Assembly: GCA_963715865.1 (NCBI GenBank)
Contig: OY970280.1
Location: 1,216,001 to 1,280,000 of the forward strand
Direction: 5' to 3'
DNA: 64,000 bases
Source: Candidatus Bathyarchaeota archaeon
Lineage (GTDB): Archaea; Thermoproteota; Bathyarchaeia; Bathyarchaeales; Bathycorpusculaceae
Shown: positions 48,640 to 59,444 of the stretch, piece by piece
How positions within the stretch are numbered: position 1 is the stretch's first letter
Layout: each line of letters begins with the position of its first letter
Notes under the pieces: model-generated
What the model saw: only the letters and a program-made list of their open reading frames with translations
Told to the model about the DNA's origin: nothing
Databases searched by the model: none
Made by a program: the position numbers and the translations under genes

Positions 48640-48942
48640 CTACGCGCCTTTTTTGGCTTGCTTCTCACGTCTGTAAGCTTGAATCTCTTCTAAAACCTCT
48701 TCTTCAGTTAGCTTCTTCTTGCCCTTGTTCTGTTCGTCGATTTCCCTGAAAAGGTCTTTTAACTCCTCTCCCAAAGGCGGAACCTTGAGTTTCACCACCA
48801 CAAGCTTATCGTCCTTTCGGTAAACAACAAGCTTCGTGTTTGGAGTTATCATTAACTCTTTTCTAAGTCGCTGCGGAATAACTATCTGACCCTTAGTTCC
48901 CACCACAGCAATCTCAGGTTCTTCTTGCACTATTTTCCCCAT
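48640..48942 (-). CDS. AbrB/MazE/SpoVT-family DNA-binding protein
   Basis: VGTKGQIVIPQRLRKEL. Confidence 0.85.
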   Translation of the reverse strand: MGKIVQEEPEIAVVGTKGQIVIPQRLRKELMITPNTKLVVYRKDDKLVVVKLKVPPLGEELKDLFREIDEQNKGKKKLTEEEVLEEIQAYRREKQAKKGA

Positions 48943-49145
48943 AGTATAACTTTCATACCGACCGCACAAATAAAGTTTGCTCTCTCACATCCACAATTTG
49001 GTTACCTTAAAAGCCTTTTTCAATCATTTTTCTAAAAATTAACACTTTTCGAAAAAAAAATCTGTGTGTTTAACAGGTCTCGAGTTGTACTTAACTTTCT
49101 CTGATCTAAGAATAAATATTTAGTATTTGGCAGCTTATTGAAGTT

Positions 49146-50297: not shown

Positions 50298-50490
50298 CAG
50301 TGCCTTTACAAGAGATGCTATGACTTGTCATATATCTTTTTTCGCAAAAACTAACTATTCTGCTTTTGGTAACCTTTGTCTCCCAATCCTTTAGTTCATG
50401 AGAACTACACCACAGGTTCAGATAACCAAGCCACATAGCAATGCAATAGCTTTTTTAATGTTCATTTTTAATCTTATCCGCGGTGCGCGC

Positions 50491-51516
50491 ATGGCAGAAG
50501 AAATTTGGGTTCCGATGGATGGAGACACCTTTGTAACCAAAGATGGCTTCATACTCAACACTTTCGGATACGAACATCCAGACGACAGGGTTTTTGCATT
50601 TCTCAAGTACATCCCTGCCAAGTTCAAGGAGCTCTTTAACGTTGAAATGCTGGAGAGAACATGGAAGTTTGGTGAGAATCAGCTTTTTAGGGCAGAGAAG
50701 CTTTACACGGCGAAAAATTACCAGACTTTCATTGAAGCCTTCCGCAAGAACTTTCCAGATTACCTGTACTATTGCCCTTTTAGAAACAAGGAGTTAATCA
50801 CTGCTCCTTTCGATTTAATTGAGCGAGTTTTTGTTCCTAAAGACCGCTTGGTGTGGCTGGAAAACCTGCCAAAACATGACAAACTGCAAAAAATGGCTTT
50901 AGACCTCATCCATTTAGTATCCAAAGAATCAAATGTTAGCTTAAGCGATTTTGGAGTTCATGGCTCCATCGCTTTGAACATGCATGCGCCAGAATCAGAC
51001 ATAGACTTTGTTATTTACGGCACAGACAACTTCCGCCTAGTAGAAGAAGCCATAGCAAGACTTGTTAATACTGGAAAACTAAGCTACATTGTTGGCAACC
51101 GCTTGGAAGCAGCAAGAAAATTCCAAGGAAAATACCAAGGTAAAATTTTCATGTACAATGCAACACGTAAGCTGGAAGAAGTTAAAACAAAATATGGCGC
51201 TTATCGCTATATACCTCTTGACCCAGTGCGTTTCGAATGCACAGTCTGCGACGACACTGAAACCATGTATCGCCCAGCCACCTACAAAATCTCAGGCTAC
51301 AAACCGCAGGATCAGTTTTCTGAACTTAATTTAGACAAGATTCCTATTCAAGTCGTTTCTAACATAGGCTGCTACAGAAACATCGCCCGCGCAGGAAGCG
51401 AAATCAAAGTCGCGGGCAAACTGGAAAGGGTCGAATCAACAAATTCAAGCGAAGCTTATTACCAAGTGGTTGTTGGAACAGCAACTTCAGAGGAAGAATA
51501 CATTTGGCCAACTTAA
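50491..51516 (+). CDS. Pol-beta-superfamily nucleotidyltransferase, paralog 1 (COG1665-like)
   Basis: FGVHGSIAL...SDIDFVIYG; N-terminal GYEHP; C-terminal GKLERV. Confidence 0.85.
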
Positions 51517-52574
51517 AACTACGTGATCGAGACGCAATCCAGACGCATGAAGGCTTAATCTTCCGCGTCTTCGGCTACTCACATCCGCCCGGCGCTTACA
51601 TCTGCGACGCAGAATACGCGTCAGCAAACATTTTCAAATCAACAGACCCGCGAGCACCAAGAAACGGCAGAAACCAAATTTTCTACAAGTTCTATAATGA
51701 TGAAGGTTGGAAACTAGTTTCCAGTACATTCCAAAAATACACTATTTACCATGAAATGCTCCGCCGAAAAGTCATAGGCATAAACGAAGCCGACATAGCT
51801 GAAACAAGAAAGCCAGAAGAACGATTGCAAGCCTTAATCAAAACTGAACATAAAGATGAACTCATATCGGCAATGCAGCAAGTGCTTGATATTTCAACTA
51901 AAAAATCAGGGCTAAAAACATCCAATTTTGGCGTTTTCGGCTCAATGCTCCAAGATTTCCATCACCCGAAGCTTTCAGACATAGACCTTATAGTTTACGG
52001 CAAAAAAGAAAATGCCAAAATTCGAAAAGCTCTTGCAGCCTTATACAAGGATAATCGTTCAAGTTTGCATAACGAGTTTGAATCAGACCAAGCCATGAAG
52101 GGCAAGCAGTGGCGATTCAAAAATTTCAGCGTTGAAGATTTCGTTTGGCATCAGCGAAGAAAGCAAATCTACGGTTTATATGATGATAAAGCCAGCGGAA
52201 GAACCATAAAAGCTGAGTTTGAACCTGTGAAGGCTTGGAGCGAAATCAAATCAGAATATGACCCCAAGACAAGAATCAAGCAGAAAGGCTGGGTTAAACT
52301 TAAAGCTCGTGTTACTGCGGATGATGAAGCACCTTTCATTCCATCAATCTACAAAATTGAGCCCTTGGAAGTTTTAAGTGGCGAACGAGATGCACTTGAA
52401 GCAAAGAGGGTTCTGTCTTTCATGGAAGAGTTCCGCTTGCAAGCGCAAAAAGACGAAGTAGTAATTGTTGAAGGCAACTTGGAAGAAGTAGTGCCGCCAA
52501 AAGAGAGTTTCTACCAGGTCACATTGACTTATTGCCCACGCTACTATGAGCAAGTGTTGAAAGTGCTGCATTAA
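51504..52574 (+). CDS. Pol-beta-superfamily nucleotidyltransferase, paralog 2
   Basis: FGVFGSMLQ...SDIDLIVYG; GYSHP; GNLEEV. Confidence 0.85.
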
Positions 52575-53590
52575 ACATGTGACAGAACCATGTAATCCGA
52601 CGGCTTATTGCCAAGTATCAAACGGTAATATTCGCCCAGGTTTTTCTTGTTGGTTACAAGCTCAACTTTTCCCTGAGCAGTCACCGCTTCAGCGTTTTTT
52701 GCTTGCAAACAGAACCTGCCGCGGAAAGAAACAATTTCCCGTATTGGCTGCAACTTGGGGCCTTCAACAACTTGGACATCTTCAACCTTGTAGGTGCAGG
52801 GCGTGAAAAGTGAATCTGAACTGTCAGCTATTTTGGCTGTTATTTTAGCGTAGCCACTGTTTTTGAAGCACACGTCACCGTACTGCTCGCTTATTTCGCT
52901 CCAATCCTTCACAAAACGGATAAAATAGTCGGTTCCCATGAACTTCCCCTGAAACGCCTTACGACTTTCGACTAAGATGAAGTCTTCGAAGCTCATCTGG
53001 GTGTCTTTCGAACGAAAATCGAATAAATCCTGCAACTCCGGTCGGCTGTAAGGCTTGAACTGAGAATCCTTATCTTTAAGCAATTTCTGCAAGGCTGTGT
53101 AGGCTTTTCGGCAGTTTTTTTCTCCGTAAACTATGGGGTCAATGTCTGATTTTTCAGTGGTTAATCCTGCCAATATCGAGCCGGAAATGCCTATAGCGCT
53201 CCAGGGAATATCCGCCTCTTTTTTCAGCGCTTCAGCCAGCCGCAACGCCTTATTCTCTAACGTGTCAAGATGCTTGGATGTACGTAGTAATGCAAGTTTT
53301 TCAGCAGGCTGATAATGCTCGGCTACTTCTTTGATTGGGACTTCACAGAGTGTTTCACCAAAGACCGAGTCAAAAACAATCAACTCAGGATGATTTTCCT
53401 GCAGATACTTGAACCTTTCATCGAGGCTGTACACTTTACCGTAAGTGCTGTCTTTGCCTTGCCGAGTACCCTGCGGCGTGGGAATAAAGCGGGGAAACGC
53501 AATAATTTTGCCGACGGGATGAACTAAGCCTTTAACATCAAAAACCACGTTGCTCTTTGTCTTAATTAAGTCACCTTCGCGTGCTCTCAT
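52571..53590 (-). CDS. Pol-beta-superfamily nucleotidyltransferase, paralog 3
   Basis: IGISGSILAG...SDIDPIVYG; GLVHP; GKVELV. Confidence 0.85.
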   Translation of the reverse strand: MRAREGDLIKTKSNVVFDVKGLVHPVGKIIAFPRFIPTPQGTRQGKDSTYGKVYSLDERFKYLQENHPELIVFDSVFGETLCEVPIKEVAEHYQPAEKLALLRTSKHLDTLENKALRLAEALKKEADIPWSAIGISGSILAGLTTEKSDIDPIVYGEKNCRKAYTALQKLLKDKDSQFKPYSRPELQDLFDFRSKDTQMSFEDFILVESRKAFQGKFMGTDYFIRFVKDWSEISEQYGDVCFKNSGYAKITAKIADSSDSLFTPCTYKVEDVQVVEGPKLQPIREIVSFRGRFCLQAKNAEAVTAQGKVELVTNKKNLGEYYRLILGNKPSDYMVLSHV

Positions 53591-53678
53591 GCAAATCCCT
53601 ATTATCTTGAGCGTAAGACCATTTAAATTGCTTGTAGCTTTTTACAAACTTAAATAAACGTTTTTCGAACCATTTTAA

Positions 53679-54638
53679 GTGGACGCAATAATGAGCAACG
53701 AAGAAAAATCACAGCACATTTCCAAATGTTTAGAGCTGGCGATACTGCTTGAAGTCAGCGCAGAAAAGCCAGGCAACGTCAACTTCACATCGGGCTTTGA
53801 AGGGACAAGACGCGAGCATTTCTTGGCTTCAGCCGTTGCTGCAGGACCATCCTTTCAGGAGGCTGCTTACCGCGGGATTTCGGTGGCAGAAAACAAACTT
53901 GGCATTAGCGAGGTTGGCTTGGGGCAACTCATAAAGACTTGCGCCATTGACGTTAATGCTTGGCAAAAAGGCGGAAATACCATTCTCGGCACCATAATGC
54001 TGTTTGTACCCATCGCTGTCGCTGCAGGCATGACACCAACCAAAAAAAATTACCAACTAGATTTCTCTTTTTTGCGCAAGAACATTGACTTAGCAGTTAA
54101 ATCAACCACTGCATTGGATTCAGTGCACCTCTACGAAGCAGTAGATATCGCTAATCCAAGCGGTCTCAATGATGCGCCAGACCTTGACGTTACCGACCCA
54201 CGTTCTAAAGAGCGTCTGATAAAAGAGAATGTTAGTTTGTATGAGGTTTTCAAAATTGCCTCAGGATACGATGACATTTGTTCTGAGTGGGTACATAATT
54301 ACCCAGTAACCTTCGATTTAGCTTATCCTTACTTGATGGAGCAACTTAAAAGTAAACCTTTGAGCACGGTTGTCGTTCACACTTTCCTTAAAATCCTCTC
54401 TGAACGTTCAGACACGTTTATTGCACGAAAAGTAGGCAAAGAAAAAGCACAGGAAGTATCGTTGGATGCTAAGGCTGTCTTGGAACTTGGCGGAATAGAA
54501 ACAGCCAAAGGCAAAAAAAGCCTCAGACAGTTTGACAGGAAACTGCGATTATCTGGAAACAAGTGCAATCCAGGAACGACCGCGGATTTAACAGCCGCTG
54601 CTTTGGCACTTTGCACCCTTAGCGGATACAGGCCTTAG
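53679..54638 (+). CDS. citG: CitG (triphosphoribosyl-dephospho-CoA synthase)-family protein
   Basis: EVSAEKPGNV, NTILG, DTFIARK, NPGTTADL. Confidence 0.9.
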   Translation: MDAIMSNEEKSQHISKCLELAILLEVSAEKPGNVNFTSGFEGTRREHFLASAVAAGPSFQEAAYRGISVAENKLGISEVGLGQLIKTCAIDVNAWQKGGNTILGTIMLFVPIAVAAGMTPTKKNYQLDFSFLRKNIDLAVKSTTALDSVHLYEAVDIANPSGLNDAPDLDVTDPRSKERLIKENVSLYEVFKIASGYDDICSEWVHNYPVTFDLAYPYLMEQLKSKPLSTVVVHTFLKILSERSDTFIARKVGKEKAQEVSLDAKAVLELGGIETAKGKKSLRQFDRKLRLSGNKCNPGTTADLTAAALALCTLSGYRP

Positions 54639-54714
54639 GCGGATTAGGGTTTTCTTTAACGTTAACTTAATCTATAATAGATTGGCATTTTTTTGGGAAA
54701 GGTTTAAGTGTTTT

Positions 54715-54732
54715 GTAAACAGTACTGTTTAC
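54715..54732. promoter_or_regulatory. Perfect 18-bp palindrome, putative toxin-antitoxin operator
   Basis: GTAAACAGTACTGTTTAC between the TTTAAG TATA and the antitoxin start; second palindrome AATCTAT-A-ATAGATT at 54669-54683. Confidence 0.7.
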
Positions 54733-54739
54733 GGTGACT

Positions 54740-54961
54740 ATGATGGCTCAGGTGCAACTTAGACTGCCAGAAAAAACGTTAGAAGAGATTGACCGTTGGG
54801 TAGCAGAGGGCAGGTTCAAAAGCCGAAGTGACGCTATTAAAAGCATCATTAGCCTCTATGAGGAACGGGAGAAAACACGCGAGTTCTACAAGATGCTGCT
54901 TAAGCGCAGCCAAGAAGCCAAAGAGCACCCTGAAACGCTTGTTTCCTTAGAGGAAGCGTAA
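54740..54961 (+). CDS. Ribbon-helix-helix antitoxin (CopG/ParD-like)
   Basis: VQLRLP...IDRWV..GRFKSRSDAI. Confidence 0.85.
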   Translation: MMAQVQLRLPEKTLEEIDRWVAEGRFKSRSDAIKSIISLYEEREKTREFYKMLLKRSQEAKEHPETLVSLEEA

Positions 54962-54962
54962 C

Positions 54963-55232
54963 TTGCTATTTAAAGTGCTTATGCATCCTAAAGCTGCTAA
55001 GGCACTGCAAAAATTGGATGCGCCGGACAAGGTGAGAATAAAGGAGGCGCTTAAGGAACTTGCTGGTGATCCATGGAAAGTGGGGAAACAATTGAAGCTT
55101 TCGGATTTTTGGAGTTTAAGGATAGGGGATTACCGTGCCATTTATGAGATTGATAGAGAGAAAAACCAAGTAGTGGTAATTTTCATTGGGCATCGAAAGA
55201 ACGTTTATGATGACTTCTCAAAAATGCTATAG
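54963..55232 (+). CDS. relE: RelE/ParE-family type II toxin
   Basis: KAAKALQKL, WSLRIGDYRAIY, IGHRKNVY. Confidence 0.88.
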   Translation: MLFKVLMHPKAAKALQKLDAPDKVRIKEALKELAGDPWKVGKQLKLSDFWSLRIGDYRAIYEIDREKNQVVVIFIGHRKNVYDDFSKML

Positions 55233-55258
55233 CAGAAAATGATAAAGGAAAGGTCGGC

Positions 55259-55474
55259 ATGCAGAAGGCCAGTCGAGATATTGATGTTCGAAAAGTGCTG
55301 ATGCAAATTGAAGCAAAGCAAGACTTGAAGCTTCCTTGGGCAGTGATAACCATAGACTATTATAAGGACATAGGCGACCTGAACATACTATTCAAAATGA
55401 CGCCTTTCACTGAAGGCGAACAAAGCGACGGAAAAGCAATAATCTACACGACAAAAAGGCAAAATATCAGTTAA
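55259..55474 (+). pseudogene. DUF2283-like small protein, probably C-terminally truncated
   Basis: IDYYKDIGDLNILF resembles the DUF2283 'xYDxExDxLYIxF' pattern; the final 'GIEI' strand is missing. Confidence 0.4.
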
Positions 55475-55520
55475 TAATATTAAAAAAACATCAAGAATAA
55501 TATAACTTGAAGGAAAACTC

Positions 55521-56483
55521 ATGGATAAAACTTTAAGCGTAAACCAGATGGCTTGGAAAATAGCTCAAAAATTGCTTGATAACCCCGAGTTTTATGGCGT
55601 AACCATTTCAAAATCAGCTGCAGGAGCCACAGTTGTTGATGCAGGCGTAAATGCTCCTGGCGGGTTTCAAGCAGGCAAAAAATTAATTGAGTTATGTATG
55701 GGTGGCGCTGGGAAAGCGCAGTTAGGCTTCAAAACCTACGGTGACTTAACCTTCCCATCGATAACTGTTAGTACTGATCACCCGGCGATTGCAACGTTGG
55801 GTTCGCAGTTTGCTGGCTGGCGCATTAAAGACGGCGACTCAATAGCAATCGGGTCTGGTCCGGTTCGCGCTCTGGCATTGAAGCCTAAGGATATTTACGA
55901 AGAAATAGGCTATAAAGACTCAAGCGACAAGGCAGTGCTCACGCTGGAAAGCAATAGCTTGCCTTCGGATGCACTTATTGAGAAAGTGACGACTGCCAGT
56001 AACATTTCAGCCGAAAACTTGATTGTTGTTGTTGCTCCAACCGCAAGCATCGCTGGTTTGACGCAGGTAACAGGCAGAATAGTTGAAGTTGGCATTCACA
56101 AGCTCAGAACTCTCGGTTTAAGTCCTAAGGTGATTCGTTACGCGATGGGTTATGCTCCGATTCCGCCGCTTGGCACTGACTTTGAAGTTGCAATGGCACG
56201 GACAAATGATGCTATTCTTTACGGTGGAACCGTCTACTGCACGGTTGACTTTGATGATGAGGCTGCCTTGCAGAAGATTATGGAGCAGGCTCCGTCTATG
56301 GCTTCGAAGGATTATGGAAAACCCTTCCTGCAGATTTTCCAAGAAGCAGACCGCGACTTCTACAAGATTGACCACGGCTTATTCGCGCCAGCAGTACTGA
56401 TCATAAACAACGCTAAAACAGGCAGAACCTTCAAAGCAGGACAAATCAACCCTAAGGTGTTAGCTCAATCCTTAGGATTCTAA
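55521..56483 (+). CDS. mch: Methenyltetrahydromethanopterin cyclohydrolase
   Basis: VDAGV..PGG, GSQFAGW, GSGPVRAL, LESN, ARTNDAILYGG, FYKID..LFAPA. Confidence 0.95.
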   Translation: MDKTLSVNQMAWKIAQKLLDNPEFYGVTISKSAAGATVVDAGVNAPGGFQAGKKLIELCMGGAGKAQLGFKTYGDLTFPSITVSTDHPAIATLGSQFAGWRIKDGDSIAIGSGPVRALALKPKDIYEEIGYKDSSDKAVLTLESNSLPSDALIEKVTTASNISAENLIVVVAPTASIAGLTQVTGRIVEVGIHKLRTLGLSPKVIRYAMGYAPIPPLGTDFEVAMARTNDAILYGGTVYCTVDFDDEAALQKIMEQAPSMASKDYGKPFLQIFQEADRDFYKIDHGLFAPAVLIINNAKTGRTFKAGQINPKVLAQSLGF

Positions 56484-58508: not shown

Positions 58509-59444
58509 TTGCCGTGTTTTGTTTTGGATTTATCTTTACTTGTCGAAGAAGCCCTGCGCATTCAAAGCAGCGGCTTTATTGAGGCAGTGGATAGAGCCGC
58601 TTCCTTGCTACGCGGTGAAAGTGGGCGAGTCGGCAACTTAACAATAGTAAACCGTTTAGTTAAGCTTGAACCGTTAGGCGAAGCGCTAGTAATAGGCGAC
58701 TTGCATGGAGACCTTGAAAGCCTCGTAGTTATCTTGCAAACAAGCCGATTCCTCGAGAAAATGGAGAAAACGGAGGAGGCAACGTTAATTTTTTTGGGTG
58801 ATTATGGTGACAGGGGAGATAAATCAGCAGAAATCTACTATACAGTTCTGAAACTTAAGCTTGCTTTTCCCAGGCAAGTTGTTTTGTTGCGTGGAAATCA
58901 TGAAGCGCCAAAGGATTTGTTGGGTTATCCGCATGATTTGCCTGAACAATTCCAAAACAGGTTTGCGGAAGATTGGCAGGCGGCTTATGAGAAAACACGG
59001 GCTTTATGCGCTTATTTTTACAATGCGGTGTTTGTGGAGGACCGCTATTTGATGGTTCATGGCGGCGTGTCTCCGGAAATCAGCAGTCTCCAAGACATCG
59101 CTTTGGCTCAAGAAAACCGCAATTTGGCTTTGCTGGAAGATTTGCTTTGGAGCGACCCTGACGAAGGCATAGAGGGCGTTTCTTTTTCGCCGAGGGGGGC
59201 AGGGAAGCTCTTTGGAAAAAATGTAACGGAAGATGTTCTTGGAAAGTTGAACGCTAAAATTTTGATACGCGGCCACGAGTCAAGTGACGTGGGCTTCAAA
59301 ATTAACCATGATGGCAAAGTCTTAACTTTGTTTTCAAGAAAAGGCTCACCATACTATAACAGGTATGGCGCATATTTGCAGTTGCCACTTTCAGAAAAGT
59401 TCGAAAATGCCACTCAGCTTGTTCCGTGGATTCATAAATTTTAA
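58509..59444 (+). CDS. PPP-family Ser/Thr protein phosphatase (metallophosphoesterase)
   Basis: GDLHG, GDYGDRG, RGNHE, VHGG, LLWSDP, RGHE, TLFS. Confidence 0.9.
   Translation: MPCFVLDLSLLVEEALRIQSSGFIEAVDRAASLLRGESGRVGNLTIVNRLVKLEPLGEALVIGDLHGDLESLVVILQTSRFLEKMEKTEEATLIFLGDYGDRGDKSAEIYYTVLKLKLAFPRQVVLLRGNHEAPKDLLGYPHDLPEQFQNRFAEDWQAAYEKTRALCAYFYNAVFVEDRYLMVHGGVSPEISSLQDIALAQENRNLALLEDLLWSDPDEGIEGVSFSPRGAGKLFGKNVTEDVLGKLNAKILIRGHESSDVGFKINHDGKVLTLFSRKGSPYYNRYGAYLQLPLSEKFENATQLVPWIHKF

Follow-up and report, generated by a model that had tools for sequence, protein, structure and literature searches.

Organisation of the Locus

The window, a stretch of 64,000 nucleotides from the complete, single-contig, 2.35-Mb genome of a soil archaeon of the Bathyarchaeia, contains a CitG-like gene, three nucleotidyltransferase (NTase) genes designated NT1 to NT3, a ParD/ParE pair and mch (Table 1). 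Gene calling bears out the layout given by the sequence-only reading, with CitG divergent from NT3 across an 88-nt spacer, in the same orientation as mch and separated from it by a TA insert. The true start of CitG is most likely the ATG at 53691 rather than the GTG at 53679. The spacer element is the sole strongly conserved block in an alignment of 22 Bathyarchaeia loci and has a single occurrence in the window. The 3' end of NT1 overlaps the start of NT2 by 13 nt; both genes fall just beyond positions 52571-56483, the interval treated by the sequence-only reading.

Table 1. Features of the CitG/NTase/mch locus (window coordinates)
Feature	Position	Strand	Evidence
NT1, 372-aa nucleotidyltransferase paralogue, clade A	50398..51516	+	PF01909 22.6 bits
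NT2, 356-aa nucleotidyltransferase paralogue, diverged clade B member	51504..52574	+	PF01909 25.2 bits
NT3, 339-aa nucleotidyltransferase, clade B, divergent partner of CitG	52571..53590	-	weak PF01909
Putative BRE/TATA-like element, CitG/NT3 divergent spacer	53649..53665	.	conservation
CitG-like gene, ATP:acceptor triphosphoribosyl transferase family	53679..54638	+	PF01874 E=1.4e-65
ParD (RHH)	54734-54961	+	PF01402 28.8 bits, above Pfam cut-off
ParE	54963-55232	+	PF05016 44.6 bits, above Pfam cut-off
71-aa ORF	55259-55474		no family match
mch, methenyl-tetrahydromethanopterin cyclohydrolase	55521..56483	+	TIGR03120 382.8 bits (cut-off 228.8); PF02289 E=4e-117

The ParD/ParE pair is a mobile insert that lies outside the module, as had been read from the layout; it is present between CitG and mch in L006 and L007 and absent from many other relatives, including the closest one (L005), in which the mch-CitG gap is 80 bp. 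The mch gene directly adjoins CitG in many Bathyarchaeia loci.

The CitG-like Protein

CitG is a single-copy gene whose product matches PF01874 over its full length (222 bits, cut-off 27; model positions 2-283 of 284) and aligns with E. coli CitG at an hhalign probability of 97.2% over 253 columns; the KPGN and NPGTTAD motifs are invariant among 37 archaeal and bacterial homologues. As a full-length homologue of a characterised enzyme with the family motifs kept, the protein looks intact. The NCBIfam CitG/MdcB equivalog models score 27-51 bits against cut-offs of 272-477 and match the C-terminal third only; CitG therefore represents a separate subfamily, and the low, partial scores argue for a different acceptor. 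The lack of citrate lyase and malonate decarboxylase genes, first remarked on for the window, extends to the whole host genome, which has neither CitX (PF03802) nor the citrate-lyase/malonate-decarboxylase ACP (PF06857), so that the classical CitG role would be without a substrate protein.

The Nucleotidyltransferase Family

NT1, NT2 and NT3 are full-length paralogues with 22-28% identity (BLASTP E=2e-33, 8e-24 and 2e-18), the lowest value being for NT1 and NT3 over their full length and the highest for NT2 and NT3; the earlier count of three paralogues holds for the entire genome. NT1 and NT2 both carry a GS...SDID motif, GS...SDxD is kept by every NTase paralogue, and by this motif all of them look catalytically intact. 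The NT1-NT2 tandem is conserved in nearly all of 80 Bathyarchaeia loci. A quick tree places NT1, together with the single-copy NTases that adjoin CitG in family f27, in clade A, and NT3 and NT2 in clade B; the clades occur as pairs in Thermoprotei, Korarchaeia, f20, f35 and Bathyarchaeia, clade A alone in f27 and f13, and clade B alone in the bacterial class surveyed and in L098.

The AlphaFold model of NT3 (pLDDT 97) predicts three domains, whose structural Z scores are all in a range that is common by the tool's own scale: a small β-barrel (residues 1-105) with no clear match beyond weak Lsm/Sm/KOW-like ones and a best Z of 4.6, a Pol-β-type palm (residues 107-230) with a Z of 8.0 to PolX 3au2 (rmsd 2.9 over 88 residues) and further matches to terminal uridylyltransferases, and an OB fold (residues 240-339) closest to SSB, RPA and MCM-N with a Z of about 7. 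Residues G134, G137, S138, S148, D149, D151, G156, P264, G307 and E310 are invariant among 114 homologues; PF01909 matches 105 of these, weakly (best E 5.6e-9). The family shares the GS...DxD motif and palm fold with Pol-β-type minimal nucleotidyltransferases (PF01909: MntA, ANT(4'), terminal uridylyltransferases) but is set apart by its N-terminal barrel and C-terminal OB domain; neither Pfam nor NCBIfam has a model dedicated to it, and sequence search found no solved structure.

An OB fold and a Sm/KOW-like barrel, the latter matched with a low Z, are features typical of proteins that bind nucleic acids, and this counts against a role on a cofactor. The NTases would then tail, repair or modify RNA through these domains, while CitG, by analogy with the Ar(p) of eukaryotic initiator tRNA, would add a 2'-O-ribosyl phosphate to a nucleotide. 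The likeness of the palm to PolX and terminal uridylyltransferases (Z 7-8), of the OB domain to SSB, RPA and MCM-N, and of the N-terminal domain to Lsm/KOW proteins would suit such a system; however, half of the Thermoproteota genomes lack the family, which is almost confined to genomes with tetrahydromethanopterin (H4MPT) markers and is flanked by cofactor and C1 genes rather than RNA-processing genes, and the Z scores are unremarkable on the tool's scale. An RNA-directed role is very improbable.

The NTases are not members of CitX, to which no specific relationship was seen (hhalign probability to E. coli CitX 0.4%; PF03802 in 0/114 members), nor of MdcG, whose model matches 4/114 at E of at least 0.008. 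The system nevertheless resembles CitG+CitX and MdcB+MdcG in having a true PF01874 member, in keeping its gene adjacent to that of a partner with a nucleotidyltransferase fold, and in its proposed logic of an ATP-derived α-ribosyl triphosphate followed by a phosphodiester with loss of PPi. It differs in that the host lacks ACP, lyase and decarboxylase, CitG belongs to another subfamily, the partner is a three-domain protein of roughly 340 aa with an OB fold, and a small-molecule cofactor, instead of a protein serine, is presumed to be the acceptor. Were the classical chemistry retained, CitG would make triphosphoribosyl-dephospho-CoA and the NTases would load this group onto a serine in some C1-pathway carrier protein that has escaped recognition; this is very improbable. 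It would agree with the full-length homology to E. coli CitG, with the faint MdcG match of NT3 (E=0.008) and with the ability of OB folds to bind proteins too. Against it stand the missing ACP, CitX and recognisable lyase partner, the equivalog scores, which argue for a different acceptor, and the tracking of RFAP synthase by the module even in genomes without mch. To our knowledge, no H4MPT-pathway enzyme bears such a prosthetic group.

Gene Neighbourhoods

CitG and NTase remain neighbours in three arrangements: they diverge in 80 Bathyarchaeia loci, CitG precedes NTase on the same strand in 16 genomes from 7 families, and NTase precedes CitG in complete genomes of f27, which have a single NTase copy. 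Relatives of the NTases lie within RFAP synthase/MptH/MptA/ftr/fwd/mch operons in several archaeal lineages and one Thermoleophilia clade. In L098, CitG is divergent from an NTase that is followed by DUF447, RFAP synthase and an MptH-like Pterin_bind gene, with mch, fwd and ftr alongside; L096 has MptA, DUF447, RFAP synthase, Pterin_bind and NTase, L085 has mch, fwd and ftr with two NTases, and L086 has cdh, two NTases and mch. The host genome itself contains DUF447, RFAP synthase, MptH, ftr, fwd, cdh and MfnB. The bacterial loci L088 and L100 (Thermoleophilia) run ftr, fhcC-like, mch, RimK, CitG and further genes, with the NTase last, and share the order mch-RimK-CitG with the methylotroph cluster.

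The statement in the sequence-only reading that CitG-like genes occur in methylotroph H4MPT clusters is matched by orf7 of mch-orf5-orf7, which is annotated as a triphosphoribosyl-dephospho-CoA synthase and, like CitG here, is a CitG-family gene by mch in an H4MPT-linked 'archaeal-like' C1 cluster (PMC3615186; PMC11533326). The gene tables of those reports give it neither an assigned function nor an NTase partner (PMC3615186; PMC11533326), whereas here and in most archaea CitG is accompanied by one to five NTase paralogues.

The methylotroph genes orf5, orfY and orf17, formerly tied to H4MPT, turned out to be methylofuran genes (PMC8141765), a precedent for the module serving another C1-pathway cofactor, methanofuran or F420 for example, whose genes share these islands; an NTase also adjoins MfnB (4HFCP_synth) and other Mfn-like genes in L088 and L100, and CofE lies near an NTase in L085 and L098. 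The module does not track methanofuran: the marker MfnB occurs in 53/301 Thermoproteota genomes against 147/301 for the NTase, was not found in f20, f22, f25 and f27, and is present in 1/13 f13 genomes, though NTase, CitG and RFAP synthase are present in most or all genomes of these five families. Operon links are tightest with the RFAP synthase and MptH-like genes, and a ribofuranosyl phosphate is not known from either methanofuran or F420. Service to another cofactor is extremely improbable.

Phyletic Distribution

The main survey covered 301 Thermoproteota species genomes, of which 131 have both NTase and CitG, 16 NTase alone, 4 CitG alone and 150 neither; presence and absence are concordant in 25/30 listed families. 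The predicted co-occurrence with H4MPT genes was seen: among the 152 genomes with β-RFAP synthase or mch, NTase is found in 143 and CitG in 133, compared with 4 and 2 of the 149 genomes that have neither marker. The reverse pattern, in which the genes would go with an ACP/lyase system or with H4MPT-less genomes, was looked for and not observed. NTase, CitG and RFAP synthase occur together without mch in 63 genomes; the module therefore follows cofactor synthesis and not the Wood-Ljungdahl pathway as such. Counting against the cofactor reading, mch is present but RFAP synthase is not recognisable in 32/131 genomes carrying NTase and CitG; in five genomes checked for the synthase, only weak GHMP-kinase matches were found.

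The NTase had been expected to be absent from bacteria that make dephospho-H4MPT, and this was partly upheld. Among 111 genomes of a bacterial class, one has CitG and mch without NTase; on the other side, the Thermoleophilia clade has one NTase in a methylotroph-like cluster, and 6 of the 111 genomes carry the NTase, all six with CitG and mch, an independent replicate of the archaeal co-occurrence.

Proposed Role in Methanopterin Side-Chain Synthesis

A functional link of the CitG-like gene and the NTase family to biosynthesis of a methanopterin-type cofactor is supported by comparative genomics, namely by phyletic co-occurrence, adjacency in three gene orders and the placement of NTases within cofactor and C1 operons; this part of the sequence-only reading stands. 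The module probably makes part of an H4MPT-type cofactor. The full proposal, that CitG and the three NTases are side-chain enzymes of a tetrahydromethanopterin-type C1 carrier acting by a two-step scheme, is given a probability of about 0.45.

CitG and MdcB form an α-O-ribosidic bond from ATP with release of adenine, CitX and MdcG next form a phosphodiester with release of PPi, and methanopterin contains an α-ribofuranosyl-5-phosphodiester. By analogy, the CitG-like enzyme would take a 5-triphosphoribosyl unit from ATP, releasing adenine, and link it in α configuration to the pterin intermediate, at the terminal hydroxyl of its aminophenyl-ribitol portion. A Pol-β-type NTase would then direct an acceptor hydroxyl, that of 2-hydroxyglutarate in canonical methanopterin, to the α-phosphate of the triphosphate, so that pyrophosphate would leave and a ribose-5-phosphodiester remain. 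This specific chemistry is tentative and somewhat doubtful. Displacement on α-PRPP with inversion is expected to give a β-riboside, and an ATP-derived donor is thus the better fit to the α configuration; in White's cell-extract work, however, PRPP was reportedly the ribosyl donor and hydroxyglutarate addition a separate, ATP-dependent step, and a PRPP donor would not fit a CitG-type enzyme. Dephospho-H4MPT is said to have been measured in M. extorquens orf mutants in one study.

The scheme calls for one NTase and does not account for two or three paralogues that appear catalytically intact by their motifs; the two ancient clades, A (NT1) and B (NT3, NT2), might serve different steps or different acceptors, or form a heteromer. 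The suggestion of the sequence-only reading that three paralogues could build an extended carrier is speculative. The same pathway might instead use the logic of CofC/CofD in F420 synthesis, with the ribose-5-phosphate coming from CitG or a PRPP-using enzyme, one paralogue nucleotidylating the 5-phosphate or the hydroxy-acid with an NTP (PPi out) and a second transferring it (NMP out). Such a division would account for the usual pairing of the two clades, with every copy seemingly active; the NT1/NT2 overlap suggests coupled expression, the reported ATP need of hydroxyglutarate addition would fit, and the H4MPT co-occurrence and neighbourhood evidence apply equally. The lineages with one clade (f27 and f13 with A, the bacterial class and L098 with B) would need a simpler cofactor, and this route is considered unlikely. 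The likeness to CofC/CofD lies in a phosphodiester to a hydroxy-acid made through a nucleotidyltransferase with loss of PPi or NMP, and is an analogy of logic only, since CofC belongs to the NTP_transf_3 fold family and ribosyl transfer is absent there.

No published assignment of the CitG-like and NTase enzymes was found in the literature. Because the genes are almost confined to genomes with methanopterin genes, the CitG/NTase module provides testable candidates for the steps of methanopterin side-chain synthesis that are without an assigned enzyme.

Locus organization and genome context

In the Bathyarchaeia genome that holds the window (2.35 Mb, one contig, 97.9% complete) a CitG-family gene stands divergent from NT3, one of three paralogous nucleotidyltransferases (NTases), with mch further along on the strand of CitG; this gene layout, outlined over 52571-56483 by the sequence-only reading, is borne out by gene calls and profile matches. 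NT1 and NT2 lie just upstream of that interval, with reading frames that share 13 nt. All three NTases are paralogous over their full length, have a mutual identity of 22-28% and are the only copies of their family in the genome, which carries a single CitG and a single mch. The block CitG/NT3/NT2/NT1 is near-universal in 80 related Bathyarchaeia loci, among which mch is often found 80 bp from CitG. The divergent spacer between CitG and NT3, compared over 22 Bathyarchaeia loci, has a BRE/TATA-like element as its sole strongly conserved block; the start of CitG is probably ATG 53691 rather than GTG 53679.

Features of the CitG-NTase locus and of related genes in the same genome (G000, contig C1); coordinates are those of the window unless the contig is named
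Feature	Position	Strand	Remarks
MazE-like antitoxin ORF	48640-48969	-	
NT1	50398-51516	+	NTase paralogue
NT2	51504-52574	+	NTase paralogue
NT3	52571-53590	-	339 aa; weak PF01909 match
BRE/TATA-like element	53649-53665		CitG-NT3 spacer
CitG-family gene	53679-54638	+	PF01874, E=1.4e-65, full length
ParD/ParE toxin-antitoxin pair	54734-55232	+	PF01402 and PF05016 profile matches
71-aa ORF			downstream of ParD/ParE pair; no family match
mch	55521-56483	+	TIGR03120, 382.8 bits (cut-off 228.8)
Hypothetical protein, 198 aa	56540-57136	-	no Pfam or NCBIfam family
Hypothetical protein, 416 aa	57258-58508	+	no Pfam or NCBIfam family
ApaH-like calcineurin-type phosphoesterase	58509-59444	+	
DUF447, RFAP synthase, MptH-like Pterin_bind fusion operon	G000:C1:1345096-1348271	-	~75 kb from the CitG-NTase module
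CdhA	C1:2276132-2278479		split over three reading frames

The ParDE pair consists of an RHH antitoxin (PF01402, 28.8 bits against a cut-off of 20.5) adjacent to a ParE/RelE-fold toxin (PF05016, 44.6 against 23); it is rejected as a component of the module because its presence varies among close relatives. Together with the MazE-like ORF, it brings the toxin-antitoxin-type elements within 7 kb of the module to at least two. In most Bathyarchaeia loci the genes of the 198-aa and 416-aa hypothetical proteins stay with mch, also when mch and CitG are apart, and the 416-aa gene is often followed by the ApaH-like phosphoesterase; the latter may be of relevance to a pathway that requires dephosphorylation.

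The genome further carries ftr, fwd, cdh and an Mfn cluster. The reading frame of its beta-RFAP synthase (RFAP synthase) has one break, near C1:1347180, which could be taken as the sign of a dead pathway; this is rejected, as CdhA is also frame-split in the same single-contig assembly, making assembly indel errors likelier than pseudogenes.

The CitG-like protein

CitG-like genes of archaea and methylotrophs are usually annotated as triphosphoribosyl-dephospho-CoA synthase. The CitG of the window matches PF01874 with 222.2 bits (cut-off 27) over positions 2-283 of 284, and aligns with E. coli CitG by hhalign at a probability of 97.2% over 253 columns; the KPGN and NPGTTAD motifs are invariant in 37 archaeal and bacterial homologues. 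The NCBIfam equivalog models all score under their cut-offs (NF002315, 51.3 bits against 280; TIGR03132, 41.2 against 282; TIGR03125, 35.6 against 272; NF007503, 27.6 against 477), and in these comparisons the matching region is confined to the C-terminal ~110 residues. By sequence comparison the protein, which keeps both motifs, is a member of the CitG/MdcB family, but of a separate subfamily. The reaction of that family, in which ATP and an acceptor hydroxyl give adenine and a 5-triphospho-alpha-ribosyl acceptor, is a candidate activity for it.

CitG/MdcB classically work alongside CitX or MdcG and a lyase or decarboxylase with its ACP (CitD/MdcC). The profiles for CitX (PF03802) and for the citrate-lyase-type ACP (PF06857) have no match anywhere in this genome, a single contig with a completeness of 97.9%. 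The sequence-only reading had already remarked that citrate lyase and malonate decarboxylase genes are missing from the window, and its observation is confirmed because gene calls, paralogy and the whole-genome absence of CitX and ACP agree.

The nucleotidyltransferase family

The structure of NT3 is predicted with a pLDDT of 97 and features three domains: an N-terminal small beta-barrel (nothing convincing among its matches, with Lsm and KOW-like folds at Z 4.6 or less), a Pol-beta-type palm (PolX 3au2, Z 8.0, rmsd 2.9 over 88 residues; terminal uridylyltransferases also match), and a C-terminal OB fold with Z ~7 to SSB, RPA and MCM-N. In this model the accessory domains look like nucleic-acid binders. 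The family has no solved structure detectable by sequence and no dedicated Pfam or NCBIfam model; Foldseek searches of the PDB with the whole NTase and with the N-domain alone gave nothing at E<=0.001, and ESM Atlas searches matched archaeal clusters only. Clustered at 50% identity, the family comprises ~956 groups. The only lineages named by protein searches that used NT3, one of the bacterial members and protein P0251 as queries were Bathyarchaeia, Thermoleophilia/Actinobacteria, Krumholzibacteriaceae and Caldarchaeum; a related-locus search with a narrow alignment matched solely Bathyarchaeia.

The hG[GS]...[DE]h[DE]h motif is present on the palm fold, with G137, S138, D149 and D151 invariant in 114 homologues, and the catalytic GS...SDxD is kept in every NTase paralogue examined. 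PF01909 matches 105 of the 114 family members, with NT1 and NT2 above and NT3 below the gathering cut-off; the NTases belong to the Pol-beta-type nucleotidyltransferase superfamily (PF01909 clan). Membership in CitX/MdcG is excluded: the CitX profile PF03802 matches 0/114 members, the MdcG model NF002332 matches four of 114 faintly (best 15.6 bits against a cut-off of 126), and hhalign of the family profile with E. coli CitX gives a probability of 0.4%.

In a preliminary maximum-likelihood tree from a quick search, rooted at the midpoint and with SH-aLRT support values, the NTases fall into two clades of early origin: NT1 groups in clade A with the single-copy genes of the Thermoproteota families f27 and f13, and NT3 and NT2 group in clade B with the bacterial copies. 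The number of paralogues per genome ranges from 1 to 5. A complex prediction for CitG and NT3 from paired 37-row alignments returned a score of 0.00, which counts neither way.

Gene neighbourhoods in relatives

CitG and an NTase are neighbours in three gene orders. In Bathyarchaeia the two are divergent; in 16 genomes from seven other families they share a strand, with CitG first; and in complete f27 genomes the NTase, which there is a single-copy and very diverged gene, precedes CitG. More distant relatives lie within C1-cofactor operons. At locus L098 CitG is divergent from an NTase with DUF447, RFAP synthase and an MptH-like pterin-binding fusion behind it, and mch, fwd and ftr upstream; at L096 the order is MptA, DUF447, RFAP synthase, DUF1464, Pterin_bind, then NTase. 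A Thermoprotei MAG (L085) has mch, fwd, CofE and ftr followed by two NTases, and a Korarchaeota MAG (L086) has two NTases between cdh genes and mch. The DUF447/RFAP synthase/MptH-like trio of the window's own genome is the same trio that lies directly 3' of the NTase in L098.

Two Thermoleophilia MAGs (L088 and L100) display a methylotroph-like cluster ending in one NTase, namely DUF1464, ftr, fhcC-like, mch, RimK, CitG, His_biosynth-like, ATP-grasp, hydantoinase/AA-kinase, MfnB, NTase; L100 also has a CdhD-like gene nearby. This cluster is a compact archaeal-type C1 cofactor island in Actinomycetota.

Gene lists of the methylotroph cluster feature mch-orf5-orf7, where the annotation of orf7 is either triphosphoribosyl-dephospho-CoA synthase or 'H4MPT-linked C1 transfer pathway protein' (H4MPT, tetrahydromethanopterin) (PMC3615186; PMC11533326); this agrees with the sequence-only reading, which placed CitG-like genes in methylotroph H4MPT clusters. 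Three genes of the same cluster, orf5, orfY and orf17, later proved to be methylofuran genes (PMC8141765), which cautions against naming the cofactor of a gene solely by its cluster.

Phyletic co-occurrence

Beta-RFAP synthase catalyses the first committed step of methanopterin synthesis. Five marker searches were run over one set of 301 Thermoproteota species genomes, and the resulting counts are not independent events because the genomes are related to one another: the NTase profile matches 147, CitG 135, RFAP synthase 110, mch 78, and the methanofuran marker MfnB 53. NTase and CitG occur together in 131 of the 301, NTase alone in 16, CitG alone in four, and neither in 150; at family level the two are concordant in 25 of the 30 families listed. 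Phyletic co-occurrence with H4MPT genes had been suggested as a check, and the NTase is present in 143/152 genomes positive for RFAP synthase or mch versus 4/149 that have neither, two of the latter four (G007 and G150) being 76-77% complete.

The NTase, CitG and RFAP synthase are found without mch in 63 genomes; the trio is present in most or all genomes of families f20, f22, f25 and f27, in which MfnB was not found, and MfnB is seen in one of 13 genomes of f13. The module therefore follows methanopterin-type synthesis, not the Wood-Ljungdahl pathway or methanofuran. A second, independent sample, of 111 bacterial genomes from the class reached via locus L100, gave the same picture. Six have the NTase, all with CitG and mch; one more genome pairs CitG with mch, and another has mch alone.

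The module clusters or co-occurs with RFAP synthase, MptH, MptA and H4MPT-dependent enzymes, the exception being 32 Thermoproteota genomes (G013, G017, G057, G141 and G228 among them) that carry mch, CitG and 2-5 NTases without a recognisable RFAP synthase; these genomes may salvage a precursor, use a non-orthologous enzyme or build the cofactor on a different arylamine core. CitG and RFAP synthase both match in the control genomes of M. jannaschii and M. acetivorans. Two further control genomes also match, Sulfolobus acidocaldarius for CitG and RFAP synthase, and Haloferax volcanii for CitG, RFAP synthase and mch; the haloarchaeal trio is noteworthy because an annotation review describes haloarchaea as being without methanopterin-specific enzymes (PMC8305020).

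Proposed mechanism and significance

C1 units travel on tetrahydromethanopterin in methanogenesis and the archaeal Wood-Ljungdahl pathway, as they do in anaerobic methane oxidation and in the formaldehyde oxidation of bacteria. The middle and late steps in the synthesis of its side chain are the formation of ribitol, a dephosphorylation, and the additions of ribose-phosphate and of hydroxyglutarate; to our knowledge no enzyme has ever been assigned to them, and no such assignment was found in the searchable literature; nor did that literature yield a link between CitG or the NTase family and a methanopterin step, or experimental data (mutants, in vitro) on a methanopterin role of these genes. 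Cell-extract work reportedly named PRPP as the ribosyl donor, which would be at odds with a donor of the CitG type.

The established chemistry of CitG/CitX is the basis of the analogy proposed here, and methanopterin contains an alpha-riboside. In the first step the CitG-like enzyme would move the 5-triphosphoribosyl unit of ATP onto the terminal hydroxyl of the aminophenyl-ribitol pterin, giving an alpha-riboside as in methanopterin; in the second, a hydroxyl acceptor such as 2-hydroxyglutarate would displace PPi by way of the NTase to form the phosphodiester. We infer both steps by analogy with CitG/CitX. The sequence-only interpretation is partly supported: the association with methanopterin genes stands, through co-occurrence and operons, and the chemistry is a proposal. 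The profile and hhalign results give no kinship of the NTases to CitX/MdcG. What the analysis shows is that the module is associated with methanopterin genes, that its catalytic motifs are intact and that the classical partners are missing. It makes a strong candidate for the unassigned methanopterin side-chain enzymes, and one that experiments can address.

Taken jointly, a previously undescribed three-domain NTase family of two early-split clades and a CitG subfamily may make the alpha-ribosyl-5-phosphodiester tail of methanopterin-type cofactors, as a small-molecule version of the CitG/CitX protein-tagging system; each lineage would have a tail of its own, set by its number of paralogues (1-5 per genome), and the product in Bathyarchaeia would be a novel methanopterin derivative. 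This reading as a whole is tentative, with a probability of roughly one in three.

Two candidate families with a named substrate, product and stereochemical rationale make the side-chain question testable at the bench. Should these candidates hold up, a complete pathway could be assembled to produce the cofactor in heterologous hosts, inhibitors could be aimed at enzymes specific to methanogens, and CitG-like genes in archaea and methylotrophs could be re-annotated; pterin cofactor chemistry could then be predicted from the genomes of uncultured archaea.
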